From Bdellovibrionota bacterium (GTDB taxonomy: Bacteria > Bdellovibrionota > Bdellovibrionia > Bdellovibrionales > Bdellovibrionaceae), in NCBI GenBank assembly GCA_038043185.1, contig JBBTCO010000003.1:1484-65483 (forward strand): a stretch of DNA of 64,000 bases. The letters run 5' to 3'. The notes beneath the pieces are model-generated. The model searched no databases and had not been told where the DNA came from. It saw nothing but the letters and a program-made list of their open reading frames with translations. The translations under genes and the position numbers were made by a program. Shown in pieces: positions 5,910 through 21,821 of the stretch (the first letter of the stretch is position 1; every line of letters starts with the position of its first letter).

Positions 5910-5985
5910 GCGATCTTAGCTCAGTTGGTAGAGTACTTGCATGACATGCAAGGTGTCACAGGTTCGAGTCCTGTAGATCGCACCA
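5910..5985 (+). tRNA. tRNA-Val, anticodon GAC
   Basis: Hand-folded 76-nt cloverleaf. Acceptor GCGATCT/AGATCGC. D arm GCTC-AGTTGGTA-GAGT. Anticodon stem CTTGC/GCAAG with loop ATGACAT (anticodon GAC). T arm ACAGG-TTCGAGT-CCTGT. Discriminator A and an encoded CCA. Confidence 0.92.
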
Positions 5986-6014
5986 ATCTTTCTTAAAAGA
6001 CAGAATGCAGACTT

Positions 6015-6083
6015 CAGAATTCGGTACAGTATTCAGAATACAGTTAACAGTATTCTGAATACTGATCTGTATACTGAATTCTG
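6015..6083. terminator. nested hairpin, probable bidirectional terminator between tRNA-Val and the convergent nuclease gene
   Basis: Perfect 15-bp inverted repeat CAGTATTCAGAATAC (6027-6041) / GTATTCTGAATACTG (6050-6064) with an 8-nt loop. An outer 8-bp pair CAGAATTC (6015-6022) / GAATTCTG (6076-6083) encloses it. T-rich tracts follow on both strands. Confidence 0.55.
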
Positions 6084-6086
6084 TAT

Positions 6087-7145
6087 TTATTTTCCGTGAG
6101 CTTCAGGCAATATAATTTCCGTCGATATATCCACAACTACAGGATAATGATCCGATGGAATCATATTAATAAGTTCAGGCGGTGTGTCCATGGGCAAAGG
6201 CCCGTTTCTACCATTTATCTTATAAGGATAAACAAAAGCTTGTTTTACAAAAGGAGCTAGGGAAGGACTCATCATAATAGCATCTACTTGCCGCAGAACT
6301 CTTCGCCCCTCTTTTCCAAGGAAATAACTTGTAGCTCTTCTAGAAAAAGGAACATTAGCGATATCAAAAGCTTCTTTCAATTGATTTAATAGCGGTTGTA
6401 CTTCTGAACCAGGTTTAATGGTTGCATTAAAATCTCCACCCAAAATTAGAGGAACATTTTCGCCAAATTCCTTTTTAAGAGATATAATAATTTTTTCCAT
6501 AGCCGACATTTCAGCGCGTTTTAATGATGCTGAATTTGGATCATTTTTTCTACTTGCTTTGGAATGACCATGGGCTCCTAACGCAATCATAAAGGGTTGT
6601 TTTTCATTCTTACGTCGAAAAATCAAAGCTGGGAAATCTCGTGTAAAAAGAATTTCTTCCTGGTTATTATTCGATGGATTTTTCCATTTCATGTCTCGAT
6701 GAGTTCTTGTCTCTACGTCAACAGGAATGTCTTCTTTAATTAAAAATCCAATTTGCCTTTGGTCATTGCCTTCAAATAAAAAATGAGTCCATTGATTTTT
6801 TAATTTTGCGCTGGCAAGATACTCCATAGAAACTTGATTTACTTCTAGAAGGATCACAAGATCAGGCTGGGTATCCTTGATTAATTCAGGAATAGCATCA
6901 ACCATTGCTTCGACTGTATCTGAAATCGGAAGTGCTTCATTTGGCTTCTGTTCGATATTCTTTAAGTGTTTTTTTACTTTTAAAAAGTAATCTTCCGCAT
7001 TCAACGACATAAACCTCATGCTTTTAATTTTATTTAGTTCTCGATAATTATAAAAAACTTTAGAACAAGATTGAGCATAAGTAATAGAATCGCTAAATAA
7101 AATACCAGCCAATAAACCGATGCTAATTAAAATAAATTTTTTCAT
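6087..7145 (-). CDS. secreted endonuclease/exonuclease/phosphatase (EEP) family protein
   Basis: Signal peptide MKKFILISIGLLAGILFSDSITYA-Q. EEP motifs in order: MSLNAEDYF, LVILLEV, ILGGDFNA, PSDHYPVVVDI. The start overlaps the stop of the upstream gene (ATGA). Confidence 0.85.
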   Translation of the reverse strand: MKKFILISIGLLAGILFSDSITYAQSCSKVFYNYRELNKIKSMRFMSLNAEDYFLKVKKHLKNIEQKPNEALPISDTVEAMVDAIPELIKDTQPDLVILLEVNQVSMEYLASAKLKNQWTHFLFEGNDQRQIGFLIKEDIPVDVETRTHRDMKWKNPSNNNQEEILFTRDFPALIFRRKNEKQPFMIALGAHGHSKASRKNDPNSASLKRAEMSAMEKIIISLKKEFGENVPLILGGDFNATIKPGSEVQPLLNQLKEAFDIANVPFSRRATSYFLGKEGRRVLRQVDAIMMSPSLAPFVKQAFVYPYKINGRNGPLPMDTPPELINMIPSDHYPVVVDISTEIILPEAHGK

Positions 7146-16178: not shown

Positions 16179-19106
16179 ATGAAAAAAACAATTTTGTTAT
16201 CCCTGATTATTATTTCGTTCCCATTTATACAATCAAAAATTCACGCTGAATCGCCTCAGAAAACAGCGGAAAAAGCGCAAGCGGCCACTGCCGCACTTTA
16301 TGCGACTAAAAACACCGCACTGACAGAACCTCGGCAAATCACCTTTGTTGGACCAAAATCGGGCGAAGGTTATTTTAGCGCGGATGGCAACAAAATGATT
16401 TTTCAGAGTGAAAGAACTGCGGAGAATCCTTTTTACCAAATGTTTGTGCTTGATTTCCTAACAGGCAAAACAACTCAACTCTCTCCGGGAAATGGCAAAA
16501 CCACTTGCGGCTGGATTCATCCTAACATGAAAAAAGCTTTATGGGCTTCGACTCATCAAGATCCAGATTGGAAAAAGAAAAAAGATGAAGAGTACGAGAA
16601 TCGCACCAAAGCCGTCAAAGCTAAGTACGCTTGGAGCTTTGACGATACTTACGACATCTATGAATCGGATCTTAAGGGAAAATCCCGCAAGAAATTAACT
16701 AAAGCAAAAGGCTACGATGCAGAGGCCTCTTACTCGCCAGATGGAAATTGGATTGCTTATGCTTCGAATTCTCATGCTTACTCTGAAAAATTAAGTGAAG
16801 AAGACAAAAAGTTATTTGCCCAAGATCCCTCGAGCCAAATGGAAATCTACATTATGAAATCCAACGGCCAAGGCAAAAAGCGATTAACAAATACACTGGG
16901 TTATGACGGCGGACCATTTTTCAGTCCTGACGGTAAAAAAATAACTTGGCGTCGGTTTGCAACCAATGGAGCTACTGCAGAAATTTTGACGATGAATGTT
17001 GATGGCAGCGATCAAAAACAAATCACTCAGATGAATGCACTTTCCTGGGCGCCATTTTTTCATCCTTCTGGCGATTACATTATCTTTACCAGCAGTGTTT
17101 TGGGATATTCCAACTTTGAATTGTTCATTATCGACAGCGAAGGAAAACACAATCCTGTGCGTGTGACTTTCGATGAAGGCTTTGATGGCTTGCCAGCTTT
17201 TCATCCGCGGGGTGATCAAATCACTTGGACTCACCGAAATGAAAAAGGCGAGAGTCAAATCTTGTTGGCACATTGGAACGACAGTGAAGCTCGAAGATTA
17301 CTTGGCCTTCCAGGCAGACCACTCAGTTTCAAAGATTTATCTCCGCAAATATCATCTCAAGATGCTCGAAAAATCATTCGCTACATGACATCCGCCGAGC
17401 TTGGGGGACGACCCACCGCTGGATCTCAAGAAATCCCTTTTGCCGAATCTTTGGTTCAGCTCTTTAAAGCCTGGGGACTTAAAGGCGGCGGCCCAAAGGG
17501 TGAGTTCATTCACGAATTTGAATTCACTTCGGGTGTAAATTTAGGTGCGAAAAATTCTTTTCAAATTTTGCGTGAAAAAAAATCAGAAGTGAATCTAACC
17601 GTCAGCCAAGATTATCTTCCTTCATCGACTTCGGCCTCGGGAACTTTTTCCGAATCGGACGTCATTTTTGCGGGATATGGTTTAAAAATTCCTTCAACTC
17701 ATGACACTCAAGCCTATGATTCTTATAAAAATATCGATGCAAAAGGGAAGTGGGTTGCGGTGCTTCGGGATTTTCCCCTTAATGCGAGTCCAGTATTGAA
17801 GCAGCAGATGCTGAATTTTTCGCAACCTCAACACAAAATCACCGTCGCGAAAAATGAAGGCGCCATTGGCGTTATTTTTATCAATGGTTATAAGAATGGT
17901 CTTAAAGAAAATTTCAGCCAACTCAAATTTGAAGGCAGTTTAAGCGATAACTCCATTCCCGTGGTCAAAGTTAAAACGGCCATTTTTGAAAAAATGATGG
18001 GGGATCATGAGCTCTCGAAATACGAAACCCCATCAAAAGCAGATCAAGCGGTCCAGGGTTTTGAACTTGCGGGAATCAAAGTAAAAGCAGAAATCAGACT
18101 TGATCTGCAGAAGTCCAAGGGGCGAAATGTTATTGCCCGTTTACCTGGAGGCCTTTCCAAATCCGCAGTTCTGATCGGTGCCCATGGCGATCATCTTGGC
18201 ACGGGCTTATTAGGAAGCTCCTTAGCCACATCCAAAGAGCAAGGTCAGATTCATCCCGGAGCTGACGATAATGCCTCTGGAGTCGCGGCCGTCTTGGAAT
18301 TGGCTCATTATTTTTCTTCTCAGAAAAAAACAAATCCAAAGTCTTTGCAAAAAGATTTGTATTTTGCCGTATGGTCTGGGGAAGAAGTCGGTGTCTTGGG
18401 ATCGTCTCAATACGTTAAAGATTGGGGCGATAAGTTTAGCAAAACTTTTGAAGCTGGAATGAACATGGACATGGTTGGTCGTCTGCGTGAAAAACTTCAT
18501 GTTCAAGGCGTAGCCTCTGGGGATCATTGGACTAATTTATCCGAAGAAATTTCTCTGCGAACGGGTATGCAGCTATCGCTGCAAGAGGATCCTTACTTAC
18601 CAACAGATTCCATGGCTATTTATTTGGGCAATGTCCCTTCAATTAGTTTTTTCACGGGCGCGCATCCCGAATATCACACTCCACGCGATGTCGAGTCTTT
18701 GATTAATTTCGATGGCCTACAACGAACAATTGAAGTGGTCAAAACCTATACTCAACTTCTATCCGACTCTTCAGCCCGAATTGTCAGATATAAAAAAGTC
18801 GAGTCTAAAGGAATAAACCGGGGAGCCGGACAATCTTTTCGATTGTATCTAGGAACTATTCCCGATTATTCGCAAGAAGGCGTTAAAGGCGTTCGCATTT
18901 CTGGAGTTAGCAAGGGGAGCCCTGCTGAAAAAGCTGGACTGAAAGAGAAAGACGTTATCGTCGAGTTTGCCGGAGCTAAAATTGAAAATATCTATGATTA
19001 TGTGTATTCACTGCAAACAGTGAAACCATCGATTGAAACCTCGATTAAAGTCAAACGCGGGGATATAACCCAAGAACTTAAGATTGTTCCTTCCGTTAAA
19101 GAATAG
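16179..19106 (+). CDS. secreted multidomain peptidase: TolB-like beta-propeller, PA/M28 aminopeptidase and PDZ
   Basis: ATG at 16179 with signal peptide MKKTILLSLIIISFPFIQS; the listed 16143 start is a TTG extension. PD40-type repeats (FSADGNKMIF, YSPDGNWIAY, FSPDGKKITW). M28 metal ligand motifs (GAHGDHLG, GADDNASGVA, SGEEVGVLGS, NMDMVG, HPEYHTPRD). C-terminal PDZ (GVRISGVSKGSPAEKAGLKEKDVIV). Confidence 0.8.
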   Translation: MKKTILLSLIIISFPFIQSKIHAESPQKTAEKAQAATAALYATKNTALTEPRQITFVGPKSGEGYFSADGNKMIFQSERTAENPFYQMFVLDFLTGKTTQLSPGNGKTTCGWIHPNMKKALWASTHQDPDWKKKKDEEYENRTKAVKAKYAWSFDDTYDIYESDLKGKSRKKLTKAKGYDAEASYSPDGNWIAYASNSHAYSEKLSEEDKKLFAQDPSSQMEIYIMKSNGQGKKRLTNTLGYDGGPFFSPDGKKITWRRFATNGATAEILTMNVDGSDQKQITQMNALSWAPFFHPSGDYIIFTSSVLGYSNFELFIIDSEGKHNPVRVTFDEGFDGLPAFHPRGDQITWTHRNEKGESQILLAHWNDSEARRLLGLPGRPLSFKDLSPQISSQDARKIIRYMTSAELGGRPTAGSQEIPFAESLVQLFKAWGLKGGGPKGEFIHEFEFTSGVNLGAKNSFQILREKKSEVNLTVSQDYLPSSTSASGTFSESDVIFAGYGLKIPSTHDTQAYDSYKNIDAKGKWVAVLRDFPLNASPVLKQQMLNFSQPQHKITVAKNEGAIGVIFINGYKNGLKENFSQLKFEGSLSDNSIPVVKVKTAIFEKMMGDHELSKYETPSKADQAVQGFELAGIKVKAEIRLDLQKSKGRNVIARLPGGLSKSAVLIGAHGDHLGTGLLGSSLATSKEQGQIHPGADDNASGVAAVLELAHYFSSQKKTNPKSLQKDLYFAVWSGEEVGVLGSSQYVKDWGDKFSKTFEAGMNMDMVGRLREKLHVQGVASGDHWTNLSEEISLRTGMQLSLQEDPYLPTDSMAIYLGNVPSISFFTGAHPEYHTPRDVESLINFDGLQRTIEVVKTYTQLLSDSSARIVRYKKVESKGINRGAGQSFRLYLGTIPDYSQEGVKGVRISGVSKGSPAEKAGLKEKDVIVEFAGAKIENIYDYVYSLQTVKPSIETSIKVKRGDITQELKIVPSVKE

Positions 19107-19126
19107 GAATTTTTTTGACGGTTCGG

Positions 19127-19242
19127 TTTTTTAAAAGATTTCTTATTTTACTTAATAAGGACTCACCATCCATGGTTGCCGGCTCTCGCCCTCCTGGCTC
19201 GCCGAGGTCCTTATTAAGTAAAATAAGAAATCTTTTAAAAAA
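19127..19242. repeat. 116-bp palindrome (36-bp perfect arms) carrying copy 1 of a 64-bp GC-rich module at its apex; terminator position
   Basis: Arms 19127-19162 and 19207-19242 are exact reverse complements. The 44-bp centre is TCACCATCCATGGTTGCCGGCTCTCGCCCTCCTGGCTCGCCGAG. The module shared with the second locus spans 19153-19216. It lies between two convergent gene ends. Confidence 0.9.
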
Positions 19243-19315
19243 TAACAGCCAAGAAAATTTTGAGGTGGGCAGAAGGAATAACATTAAGTTTTTGGGTTAT
19301 ATTTTGGGTTTGTAC

Positions 19316-20533
19316 TTACTGCAGGAGCCAGTGGATTTCATTTATGAGTTTGTTCAGGGAGTCGTCTTCGATAGGGCCGCCATAGTGTTTGGTTCCAAGA
19401 CTGTGGCCGCGATTTGGGTATGAGTTGATGTGGATGGGGGAATTGAAAGAGGTTTGGTAAAAATGGAGCACGTTGAATTCTCTTTGCGCGGGAGTGGCGC
19501 CGTCCACATCGCCATTGTTAAAAGATATTTTTCCATTAAAGTTGAAAAAACTATTTAAATTGTTTGGTCCATCGGTGAAAAACAATTTCCACCAATTGTA
19601 GTTGGCCCAAATAACACCGTATTCGCCAAGAAGATATTTGAATGGTTCGGAGTCGGAATGAGTGAACACTTCATCGCGAGTCGCTTGGTATTTTCTGATA
19701 ATTTCTTTCTGCAAAGAACTTTCCGTCCAACTTCCAGTTGACGATTTTAAGGATTCACACTGATCTTGAGGCATCGCATTGGTTTTACAAACTGTACTAA
19801 TCTCGTTGTTTTCGATTTTCTTATCGCTATTGAGATCCATTTCCCAGTAAGCGTCAGCCATTCGTGACGTAAATTGCCACTGAAAGAGGGCTCTTGGGCT
19901 TTCGGCGACAAATCCCATCATTAACAGTCCCTTTGGTTTAATAAGGGACTTAGAAATAAGTCTGGATAAATGAATTGTTCCTTCGGAATGGGCAAAAATA
20001 ATGATCTGAGCAGCATCAATCGTTGGTTGATTCATTAAATACTTATAAACACTTGCAGCATCGTCCCCTGGATTTGTCGCTGTCACGGTAGCGCGAATTT
20101 TATTATCTATACAGCTATTAACATAATGTTGAGTGATGGATTTTTCGTCATTACATGTTTTACAAAGAGGAACAGTTCTTTCACTGCAAGAAACACCTCT
20201 GTAATCATATCGTGCCGCTGCAATCCCATGTTTATTCAAAAATAAAGAAAACTCTTTAAAAAGAAGATCACGGTCCGTATTGCTTGAGCCATAATTGTAA
20301 TCACGATCAAACAACCCAGTTCCACCAACCATTAACACTATCGGAAATTTGCGAACGGAACGGGAAGCCGGCTCATCAGGGAGATCAACTTGACCATGAA
20401 TTTGAGTGATTCCATCCTCAGTGGCTATCGAAAATTGAATTGTTTTCGAAAAGCCACAGACTGGAAGAAGTAAAATTACTAGAAGATTTATATAACCCAA
20501 AATACCCATAATTCCCCGACCCCAAGTGCCCAC
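19316..20533 (-). CDS. secreted alpha/beta-hydrolase fold protein
   Basis: Hydrophobic N-terminus (an alternative start is MGILGYINLLVILLLPVCGFS at 20509). Nucleophile-elbow-like FAHSEGT. GGTGLFDRD is oxyanion-region-like. 405-aa ORF. Confidence 0.6.
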   Translation of the reverse strand: MGTWGRGIMGILGYINLLVILLLPVCGFSKTIQFSIATEDGITQIHGQVDLPDEPASRSVRKFPIVLMVGGTGLFDRDYNYGSSNTDRDLLFKEFSLFLNKHGIAAARYDYRGVSCSERTVPLCKTCNDEKSITQHYVNSCIDNKIRATVTATNPGDDAASVYKYLMNQPTIDAAQIIIFAHSEGTIHLSRLISKSLIKPKGLLMMGFVAESPRALFQWQFTSRMADAYWEMDLNSDKKIENNEISTVCKTNAMPQDQCESLKSSTGSWTESSLQKEIIRKYQATRDEVFTHSDSEPFKYLLGEYGVIWANYNWWKLFFTDGPNNLNSFFNFNGKISFNNGDVDGATPAQREFNVLHFYQTSFNSPIHINSYPNRGHSLGTKHYGGPIEDDSLNKLINEIHWLLQ

Positions 20534-20553
20534 AGGAAAGGACTTAACGAAGT

Positions 20554-20934
20554 TTATTTAACGTAACAATTAAGTTTATTTTTACCTTCTCGAAGAAGAT
20601 TTAAATGCGCTACTCTTAGTTGAGCGAATACACTCTGAGCTTTAATATCCATGATAAGTTGAGCGTTGTAATAATTACTTTGATCAGCACTAACCAATTG
20701 CGTAATTACACCACCTAAAATTTCGCTTCCCATTAAAGCAACTGGGAATTCTGCTTTTCCTTTTACCGTTAATTGTATTATGGGTACTTGTTGCCTGTTG
20801 TAATAAAAAACCGCGATTACATCATGATTTGGCGAGGTACATGTAACTCGTTGGTTCTTTCCAATCCCCTGTGAAAACGCAAGTTGAGACAAAGATAAAA
20901 CTCCTAATAACAAAGCACTTTTTAAAAACTTCAT
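20554..20934 (-). CDS. small secreted protein, unknown function
   Basis: Signal peptide MKFLKSALLLGVLSLSQLAFS-QG. 126 aa with two Cys. It lies 20 nt upstream of the hydrolase gene on the same strand. Confidence 0.55.
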   Translation of the reverse strand: MKFLKSALLLGVLSLSQLAFSQGIGKNQRVTCTSPNHDVIAVFYYNRQQVPIIQLTVKGKAEFPVALMGSEILGGVITQLVSADQSNYYNAQLIMDIKAQSVFAQLRVAHLNLLREGKNKLNCYVK

Positions 20935-21172
20935 GGCTAGCTCCTTACGATTGATACCGTTCCCAATAGAGTGGATTAATTCCCCTTACTTCAAAGTAGA
21001 ACGGTTTCTTATTAGGTCGTAAAATACATTAGTTTTCAAAAAGCTTCTACTGTTAGCCTTTCTGACAGGTAAAAACTACAAGCAGCAAGCAATACGCGCG
21101 CTCGCACAGCCGCCCTCTAATCCAAACCCGATCCCAAACACACCCCAGGAAGTGATTTTTTCATTAGGAAAA

Positions 21173-21280
21173 GTTCTTTAGAGCTTCCTCTATATAATAA
21201 GGACCTCGGCGAGCCAGGAGGGCGAGAGCCGGCAACCATGGATGGTGAGTCCTTATTATATAGAGGAAGCTCTAAAGAAC
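21173..21280. repeat. 108-bp palindrome (32-bp perfect arms) carrying copy 2 of the 64-bp GC-rich module, inverted relative to copy 1
   Basis: Arms 21173-21204 and 21249-21280 are exact reverse complements. The 44-bp centre 21205-21248 is the exact reverse complement of 19163-19206. The shared module spans 21195-21258. Confidence 0.9.
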
Positions 21281-21345
21281 GGCTTGCTAAAGCAAAACAA
21301 TCACTTCCGATAAGTTATATTATGTTACAAATTGAATTTTGCAGT

Positions 21346-21666
21346 CTATCGACCGGCTTTTATCACTGGAGAATGCTTAACTCTTCCTTTTTGATCAACA
21401 ATAGCATCGTTGCCATTTCCAACTTGAGCAAATGACATGTATCCCAAAATAATATCGTCAGGCGGTCGTTTTCCGCCGGTTTTTTCTCCGTATTCCTTTA
21501 ACATGACTTCAGTTGGTTTCCAGGGATACTCGCCCAATTGGATCCCAGCTTTTTTAAAAAAACCAACAACCTTTTCAGGAGTCGCATATGTTGGAGCGGA
21601 CTCCCAAAATCCATAAGATGAACTCGTTAAAATAAGGCCAAATAAGATGCTAAATAGTATTTTCAT
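21346..21666 (-). CDS. small secreted protein, unknown function
   Basis: Signal peptide MKILFSILFGLILTSSSYG. 106 aa. Confidence 0.5.
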   Translation of the reverse strand: MKILFSILFGLILTSSSYGFWESAPTYATPEKVVGFFKKAGIQLGEYPWKPTEVMLKEYGEKTGGKRPPDDIILGYMSFAQVGNGNDAIVDQKGRVKHSPVIKAGR

Positions 21667-21821
21667 AAATTCCTCGTTACTATGAGGGATTTCAAGATTT
21701 AAACCAAAAGTCCAGGGACTAACTTATTGATTTGTTTTGTTATTTATTTTCTTAAATTAGTTTTCTATTTAAAAAGTCATCCAGCTGTTGAGCTTTTCTA
21801 CGTATCACTCTGATACAACAC

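Follow-up and report, generated by a model that had tools for sequence, protein, structure and literature searches.

A family of small palindromic repeats with a conserved apex and a diverging stem in groundwater Bdellovibrionota

REP and REPIN sequences are small non-coding intergenic hairpin repeats of about 100 nt which persist in a lineage and for which a folded single-stranded intermediate is suspected. In REPIN hairpins, changes on one side are matched on the other (PMC3116915). Conservation in a REPIN lies in its two REP ends, at the hairpin base, and the middle is free. The bacterial MITEs (Correia/NEMIS, ERIC, RPE) are short palindromic insertions, dispersed between genes and polymorphic for presence and absence, and they are often co-transcribed with neighbouring genes. 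Families of these kinds (REP, REPIN, MITE) are usually defined by their conserved ends.

Folded single-stranded DNA is also the form in which some other sequences work. Integron attC sites are orientation-specific, conserve structure more than sequence and are located at the 3' ends of genes in variable regions; they conserve outer R and L boxes, with R''/R' core sites (RYYYAAC / GTTRRRY) at the hairpin base, have extrahelical bases and a variable apex, and require an integrase. The ITR of the parvovirus AAV and the ssoA of rolling-circle plasmids have a long stem capped by either a pair of small hairpins or a conserved loop motif, are read as ssDNA in one orientation, and give rise to inverted copies through hairpin-primed synthesis. 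Finally, there is a general mutational process that acts on inverted repeats without being an element: template switching between the arms homogenises them and makes them grow into their flanks, copies multinucleotide changes and indels from arm to arm, and can invert the spacer (PMC8604942, PMC13100816, PMC7202029).

Here we describe a family of repeats which, compared with those defined by conserved ends, is built inside out, with a conserved asymmetric apex and a free stem. It is most like the REPINs and MITEs, its closest working parallels in being small, structured, intergenic and occasionally mobile, although it lacks the features that define either. The differences from REPINs are that the apex is conserved and the base free, that the alignments contain no GTAG/CGTC tag, that copy number is far lower, that no RAYT was found in ~100 kb of the genome studied, and that the element is accompanied by an inversion of flanking sequence, which is not a REPIN feature. 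In contrast to MITEs, no conserved terminal inverted repeats, direct target duplication or parent insertion sequence were found, and the arms diverge freely yet stay perfect. None of the attC features (outer boxes, extrahelical bases, variable apex, integrase) is seen here. The AAV ITR and ssoA, which the element resembles in shape, lie on small linear or circular replicons beside Rep genes, whereas the element is chromosomal, has no Rep gene nearby and shows no sequence similarity to them. Template switching explains neither the 44-nt apex nor the presence of the element at new loci; of its traits, homogenisation and outward expansion are seen here, but flip/flop alleles are not (six assemblies). 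The element also differs from an intrinsic terminator: it has an AT-rich stem and a 44-nt loop, an A-run rather than a T-run closes the right arm, and a terminator scan flags other sites. The family matches no described repeat or RNA family, and is best read as an undescribed family of small palindromic repeats in a clade of uncultured, groundwater Bdellovibrio-like Bdellovibrionota.

Two palindromes in the window and the copies in related genomes

The window, that is, the whole stretch of 64 kb that was analysed, contains two long perfect inverted repeats, named A and B, and no others. Copy A had been described in a first-pass annotation of the sequence as a pair of exact, AT-rich 36-bp arms around a GC-rich centre of 44 bp, and this description is correct: 36 of 36 positions are complementary, and the GC content is 17% in the arms and 68% in the centre, the sequence of which is TCACCATCCATGGTTGCCGGCTCTCGCCCTCCTGGCTCGCCGAG. 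The same 44-mer is found once more in the window, on the opposite strand, in copy B (two occurrences, against an expectation of 0 in dinucleotide shuffles). The identity of A and B covers exactly 64 nt, the core plus 10 bp per side. This exact recurrence at 21195-21258 had already been seen, but its extent was understated, as B is itself a perfect palindrome with arms of 32 bp (32/32) and a gap of 44 nt. At both loci an imperfect palindromy continues beyond the perfect arms, to ~19063/19302 at A and to ~21148/21308 at B. The whole 116-nt unit of copy A folds with a z-score of -12 to -13. The features of both copies are listed in Table 1.

Table 1. Features of palindromes A and B in the window
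Feature	Position	Strand	Observation
Copy A core, tip of the hairpin, TCACC...CCGAG	19163..19206	+	Identical at B; 91-95% identical to the L010 and L009 orthologues
Copy A left arm, 36 bp, 17% GC, element rather than flank	19127..19162	.	36/36 pairing; arm homology to L001, copy B and the second L013 copy (z > 4)
Copy A right arm, 36 bp	19207..19242	.	Complementary to left arm
Core hairpin H1, ACCA / loop TCCA / TGGT	19165..19176	+	Fold; outer pair 19165:19176 covaries
Core hairpin H2, CGGC..GCC / loop CTCCT / GGC..GCCG	19180..19204	+	Fold; inner pair 19189:19197 covaries
Copy A source flank: 3'-terminal 44 nt of the M28 peptidase gene, whose stop codon ends at 19106, and 20-nt spacer	19063..19126	+	
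Copy A imperfect inverted copy of the upstream flank	19243..19302	.	19272-19302 is 87% complementary to 19063-19093
Copy B core, same 44-mer	21205..21248	-	
Copy B arm, 32 bp, inner 10 bp as in copy A	21173..21204	.	
Copy B other arm, 32 bp	21249..21280	.	32/32 complementary
Copy B imperfect palindromy beyond the perfect arms, one side	21148..21172	.	
Copy B outer imperfect palindrome, side facing the 106-aa gene (21346-21666, -)	21281..21308	.	
Two ORFan genes (405 aa, 126 aa) between the inverted copies A and B	19316..20934	-	

The window is identical to contig CAYHJN010000003.1 of assembly GCA_964356945.1, a Bdellovibrionota MAG from Hainich H41 groundwater, and the locus is unchanged in the NCBI MAG and in five separate contigs (four from ENA assemblies, one from Logan). 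Since the same sequence is present in all of them, the palindrome is not an assembly artefact. A flipped core, as expected from an inverted spacer, is absent from these six assemblies of the locus, which all carry the core in the same orientation. We also considered whether the 2-kb segment between A and B is invertible, and rejected the idea because all assemblies share one arrangement. Contig breaks at the elements are uninformative on inversion, because 64-bp inverted repeats would cause them anyway.

Pattern scans and a comparison of orthologous loci identified ten copies in ~185 kb from three related Bdellovibrionota genomes: A and B in the window, one in L011, one in L012 and two in L013 (all from the Hainich community), one in L001 and two in L010 (MAG GCA_021731025.1), and one decayed copy in L009 (a Logan assembly). 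The window's genome is covered for ~100 kb, made up of the 64-kb window and L011-L013. The genome scan used an exact 24-mer, a pattern that misses the CCATCC variant of the core; a covariance model built from eight copies recovers exactly these ten in the 185 kb and nothing more. Nine of the ten copies keep 44 nt between their arms; the decayed L009 copy has 43 nt there, with deletions of 24 nt in one arm and 1 nt in the core. Perfect arms of 32-36 bp are found in six copies and of at least 22 bp in one that is truncated by a contig end, while two copies (arms of 33 and 40 bp) carry two mismatches each. The unit of arm, core and arm thus measures ~108-124 bp, with a stem of 32-40 bp.

The known range of the family is narrow, with three related genomes and a low copy number. 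Two patterns searched against viral contigs and blastn searches of plasmid and phage collections returned no match to the element. With Rfam 15 at the gathering score, tRNA alone passes in the window and no family does in L001 or L011-L013; at E <= 10 the element gives only sub-threshold matches to microRNA precursors, which are due to its long stem.

Divergence of the stem arms and conservation of the cap

Because A and B share only the inner 10 bp of their arms, the outer 26 bp of copy A had been regarded as specific to the locus. A comparison between arms from non-orthologous loci shows that they are instead diverged element sequence. The arms align with z values of up to 5.5, six pairs exceed z = 4, and 35 of the 36 pairs lie above the null mean; in addition, a motif, TTTTTAAATTTnCTTATTT, recurs in arms from unrelated loci. 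Given this homology, the arms belong to the element and the unit is arm plus core plus arm. The 10-bp inner arm, TAATAAGGAC, is common to A and B only and is absent from the eight other copies.

These results bear on the first of three explanations offered by the first-pass annotation, a MITE whose terminal repeats are 10 bp long and whose targets are the apices of hairpins already present. The observation behind it, that A and B share exactly the core and 10 bp per side while their outer arms differ, is accurate, but the explanation itself now seems highly improbable. The 10-bp repeat is not conserved, and the outer arms, being homologous between loci, are part of the element. Moreover, all but two of the perfect palindromes with arms of at least 12 bp in the ~185 kb of related DNA carry the core, which leaves no stock of empty hairpins as targets, and no target-site duplication was found at the site described below. 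The possibility had also been raised that orthologous loci carry the same palindromes without the core, as a local duplication would. There are no empty long palindromes in the 185 kb, and the empty sites between the FGase and ResB genes, described below, have no hairpin.

The way in which the arms diverge is informative. In an ungapped alignment of eight copies the only invariant stem pairs are the C-G pair that closes the cap and one more arm pair (columns 14/95, T-A), and 30 of the 32 stem pairs have changed on both sides. The alignment has 256 stem cells, of which 252 are Watson-Crick, none is G-U, and four are mismatched (three C-A and one T-T on the sense strand). About half of the differences between homologous arms are transversions, accompanied by 1-7 internal indel columns, and each difference is mirrored in the partner arm; the arms are perfect despite a divergence of ~40% between homologues. 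Stepwise compensation at the RNA level would leave G-U intermediates and would very rarely produce mirrored indels; therefore, one arm has been copied from the other as DNA. We conclude that the arms evolve in concert and that their pairing is maintained by copying at the DNA level and not by selection at the RNA level. The stem evolves at a near neutral rate and yet remains an exact DNA palindrome, and perfect covariation along a long stem can stem from DNA-templated copying rather than from RNA selection, which calls for caution in covariation-based RNA discovery.

The cap, in turn, is structured and conserved in sequence. The first-pass annotation had folded the core by hand into two small hairpins which, with the long stem, make a three-way junction, and the minimum free energy fold is the same. 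Compensatory changes support one pair in each hairpin: core positions 3:14 in hairpin 1 have changed from the A-T of most copies to G-C in L001, and positions 27:35 in hairpin 2 from the majority C-G to G-C in the second L013 copy (L013:23-66). Few core positions vary at all. Three other variable sites are located in loops, and an A6C change makes the final pair of hairpin 1 weaker. The fold and the compensatory pairs together support a T- or Y-shaped three-way junction, made of two hairpins and the long stem. By itself, the 44-nt core folds no better than its shuffles (z = -0.4 and -0.9).

Comparison of the orthologous copies (window, L010 and L009) gives an identity of 91-95% for the core and of 54-70% for the arms. 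In the M28 peptidase gene next to them, in the same three genomes, four-fold sites are 43-46% identical and codon positions 1+2 are 82-94% identical; the cap is, consequently, more conserved than the neighbouring protein. Such conservation requires either a selected function or repeated overwriting from constrained copies, and the exact 64-bp identity of A and B amid diverged outer arms hints at overwriting between copies. As the cap is asymmetric and lies in the loop, homogenisation of the arms does not act on it, and from its conservation we infer a sequence-specific ligand. Were the element purely selfish, it ought to decay wherever a locus is inherited vertically, so the conserved cap points to a role at the level of the host, which an RNA could fill just as well, or to overwriting.

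Several other identities for the core were tried. A coding function was rejected, since the arms differ and the ORFs across the element are accordingly not conserved; when six-frame core peptides, including the ORF called from the core ATG (MVAGSRPPGSPR...), were compared with a protein database, none of the 21 short-word candidates reached E <= 10. Inspection of the sequence and a promoter scan gave no support for a tRNA or rRNA fragment or for a sigma-54 or sigma-70 promoter. A Rho-binding C-rich tract would agree with the strand bias reported below, yet the tract is short and structured.

Palindromy in the flanks and a filled site compared with empty ones

Beyond the perfect arms, outer arms extend the palindromes to 55-144 nt, with patchy identity: 87-92% in the parts derived from coding sequence versus ~50% in the spacer beside the arms. 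At four loci the left side is the 3' end of a coding sequence, namely M28 (window and L010), FGase (L011) and CoaE (L013), so the right side must be the copy. The source of the inverted flank copy is thus the 5' side at 4/4 loci where the source can be told. At the M28 locus, the element and the inverted coding copy are present in all three genomes, and the synonymous codons that distinguish the window (CTTAAG) from L010 (TTGAAG) are mirrored in the non-coding arm. These lineage-specific codons show that copying from arm to arm is ongoing and reaches ~100 nt from the tip, pulling neighbouring DNA, including the 3' ends of coding sequences, into palindromy.

The spacer between the FGase and ResB genes allowed a filled site to be compared with empty ones, with one clean filled locus (L011) and five aligned empty sites. 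The spacer is 248 nt long in L011 and 90-93 nt in L015, L016, L017 and L018; it is 16 nt in L019, and 179 nt in L020, where it has no element. The extra DNA in L011 consists of a 124-nt element followed by a ~50-nt inverted complement of the left flank, after which the conserved downstream sequence picks up intact. Alignment with L015-L018 reveals no direct duplication of the target. In the empty sites, the point at which the downstream sequence resumes already has a 16-nt inverted microhomology to the coding region (score 22 versus a null of 15.5 ± 2.3). The downstream DNA in L011 has been partly converted toward complementarity with the coding arm, which it now matches at 24 of 26 positions. 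An insertion that creates inverted duplications of the flank had been the second explanation in the first-pass annotation. It holds for the upstream flank beyond the arms, whose inverted copy the filled site has and the empty ones lack; it does not hold for the outer 26 bp of the arms, which are not flank.

To account for these observations we tentatively favour, with a confidence that stays a little below even, a DNA-level palindromic repeat element with a recognition cap, the arms of which are homogenised and extended by template switching. The cap would be the sequence-specific part, probably a binding site for a trans-acting protein that reads the folded single strand, and the stem would need only to pair. 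During replication, the nascent strand may fold back and copy the opposite arm, as in quasipalindrome or template-switch correction. Where the fold-back synthesis overran the end of the arm, an inverted copy of the upstream flank would be written downstream, and the strand would rejoin at an inverted microhomology. The palindrome would thereby grow into neighbouring DNA, gene 3' ends included. New copies would be rare, would form without direct target duplication, and would settle mostly just downstream of a gene and in the same orientation. Read in this manner, the family would offer a natural, datable case in which template switching has homogenised and expanded inverted repeats in bacteria, with a clean pair of filled and empty sites.

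The L011 insertion is likewise what would be expected from a dedicated hairpin-primed transposition, in which a folded single-stranded copy joins a nicked target and 3' extension along the target strand makes the inverted flank duplication, a reaction that would be akin to the rolling-hairpin synthesis of T-shaped parvoviral termini. The T-shaped topology of the element, its combination with an inverted 5' flank and no direct duplication, and the 5' source at all four loci where it can be told are in agreement with such a reaction, which we nevertheless find doubtful. The identity of the outer arms is patchy and not uniform, and no HUH/Rep-like or other candidate enzyme is encoded among the genes around the copies. 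Furthermore, part of the downstream DNA that was there beforehand has been converted, and co-evolution of the arms goes on long after insertion, so that an ongoing process is needed in any case. We give similarly little credence to a self-propagating T-shaped hairpin that would use fold-back synthesis to copy itself, to restore its second arm and to invert the target DNA beside it, the cap being a putative site for a nickase or recombinase. If this were true, it would represent bacterial chromosomal mobility marked by inverted, not direct, target duplication; and should a dedicated enzyme act at the cap, the family would exemplify a new mechanism of insertion.

Orientation and gene context

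The core, in the direction TCACC..GAG, reads along the upstream gene at 6/6 informative loci (p ≈ 0.016, one-sided), and most copies start 8-65 nt past a stop codon. The copy in L012 sits between divergent genes. This strand bias fits a selected form that is ssDNA and one that is RNA alike. GC skew was uninformative as a guide to orientation relative to replication, the skews being small and mixed.

Orientation and position are reasons to consider that the cap is a cis-acting structured RNA at mRNA 3' ends, presented by the long stem, with palindromy as a mutational side effect. Such an RNA could serve as a stabiliser, as a site of processing by RNase III or otherwise, as a 3'-UTR module that binds a protein, or as a small RNA in its own right. 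The two compensatory pairs in the cap and its 91-95% conservation at vertically inherited loci add to this case. We regard it as rather unlikely, however, in view of the stem: none of its 256 cells is G-U, C-A on the sense strand accounts for three of the four mismatches, and transversions and indels are mirrored. The stem is not followed by a U-tract, and the terminator scan does not flag the element; Rfam gives no match, and the core alone folds no better than shuffles. The L012 copy lies between divergent genes, and the element is polymorphic for presence and absence behind genes that are unrelated. Of the third explanation in the first-pass annotation, a structured 3'-end RNA with a closing stem free to covary, the three-way junction and the co-orientation with upstream genes have thus been retained, while the lack of G-U pairs, the mirrored indels and the L012 copy speak against it. 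In the template-switch reading that we prefer, the active form of the cap would be ssDNA rather than RNA.

The genes next to the copies are unrelated to each other (M28 peptidase, CoaE, FGase/ResB, lytic transglycosylase and several ORFans), and the copies were found inside chromosomal contigs of 20-120 kb, among housekeeping genes. No transposase, integrase or reverse transcriptase is encoded around the copies, and no integrase or recombinase Pfam domain was detected in the genes at 6179-30934 of the window (13-16 kb upstream of A and ~10-12 kb downstream of both).

The interval from the M28 gene to the 135-aa/PQQ genes is a variable hot spot in which the accessory genes differ per genome; in L014, from a relative with 61% identity, it contains toxin-antitoxin genes and no element. 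In this interval, the elements follow individual small genes: in L010, M28 and a 71-aa ORF; in the window, the 106-aa gene. An arrangement of this kind, together with the orientation specificity and the maintenance of structure while sequence varies, recalls a hot spot in the chromosome where gene cassettes are bounded by attC-like recombination sites, whose folded single strands a site-specific recombinase would recombine. This is very unlikely. A conserved apex with a free base is the reverse of attC, there are no R''/R' GTTRRRY boxes, and the stems are perfect, without extrahelical bases. No integrase is present within ~10 kb in either direction, other copies occupy ordinary housekeeping loci, and the L011 insertion brought no gene with it. 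The M28 peptidase at this locus is 975 aa long when read from its ATG, and that version was matched in an exact look-up.

Copying between arms and the ends of genes

Copying from one arm of the element to the other extends into the final 30-80 nt of protein-coding genes, as can be seen both in the window and in L010, a contig of MAG GCA_021731025.1, where the coding 3' end is paired with an inverted copy. The C-terminal codons of the M28 peptidase gene, and those of the FGase and CoaE genes found upstream of other copies, therefore swap sequence with the non-coding inverted copy. Arm copying is a possible origin of clustered substitutions at the 3' ends of genes. A terminator-like hairpin, whose 11 pairs lead into a T-run, overlaps the stop codon of the M28 gene. 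It occupies the stretch of poor matching that separates the perfect arms from the outer palindrome derived from coding sequence, and its T-run constitutes the first bases of the left arm of copy A.

Gene callers also annotated an 83-aa ORF starting at an ATG within the core (MVAGSRPPGSPR...). It shows no conservation between element copies and is almost certainly spurious.

Coordinates of the features described (window numbering, or that of the contig named)
Feature	Sequence	Position	Content
Coding 3' end and inverted copy	Window	19063-19106 with 19272-19302	
Coding 3' end and inverted copy	L010	12458-12494 with its right flank	
Terminator-like hairpin	Window	19093-19121	
83-aa ORF	Window	19172-19423 (+)	
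Hot spot	Window	19107-21821	Three ORFans
Hot spot	L010	12495-13951	Two ORFans, other than the window's
Hot spot	L009	12911-21744	About 9 kb including ParE, patatin, hydrolase
Hot spot (M28 side of interval only)	L014	5908-6635	HepT/MNT toxin-antitoxin genes directly after M28
A-to-B segment	Window	about 19213-21202	
GC-rich module with arms	L012	4152-4256	
tRNA-Val(GAC)	Window	5910-5985	
Imperfect palindrome	Window	6004-6087	

A hot spot, and contig breaks within elements

The conserved M28 gene and, on the far side, the 135-aa/PQQ-repeat genes bound a hot spot whose accessory genes differ in each relative, including L009 (a Logan assembly) and L014 (a 61%-identical relative lacking the element at this locus). 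In metagenome assemblies contig breaks fall within elements: three contigs (L005, L006 and L007) are made solely of the 2-kb A-to-B segment, and the first base of L013, a 77-kb contig, lies inside an element copy. Elements of this kind are expected to be under-represented and split in MAGs.

Other palindromes

A 71-nt module (69% GC) in L012, another element-bearing contig, forms the tip of a palindrome with perfect, AT-rich 17-bp arms (TTTAAATTCCAAAGGCC / GGCCTTTGGAATTTAAA); it lies shortly 3' of an Ada-like methyltransferase gene whose final Pfam domain is truncated. This module has the architecture of the element with a different core, unrelated to the 44-nt one. It occurs once among the window and the related contigs examined, and an Rfam search with it gave no match.

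In the window, tRNA-Val is followed directly by an imperfect palindrome whose arms, each 42 nt long and 81% complementary, meet without a spacer. It adjoins a convergent Exo_endo_phos-like gene (352 aa) at that gene's end, and may represent a terminator acting in both directions or what remains of an attachment site.
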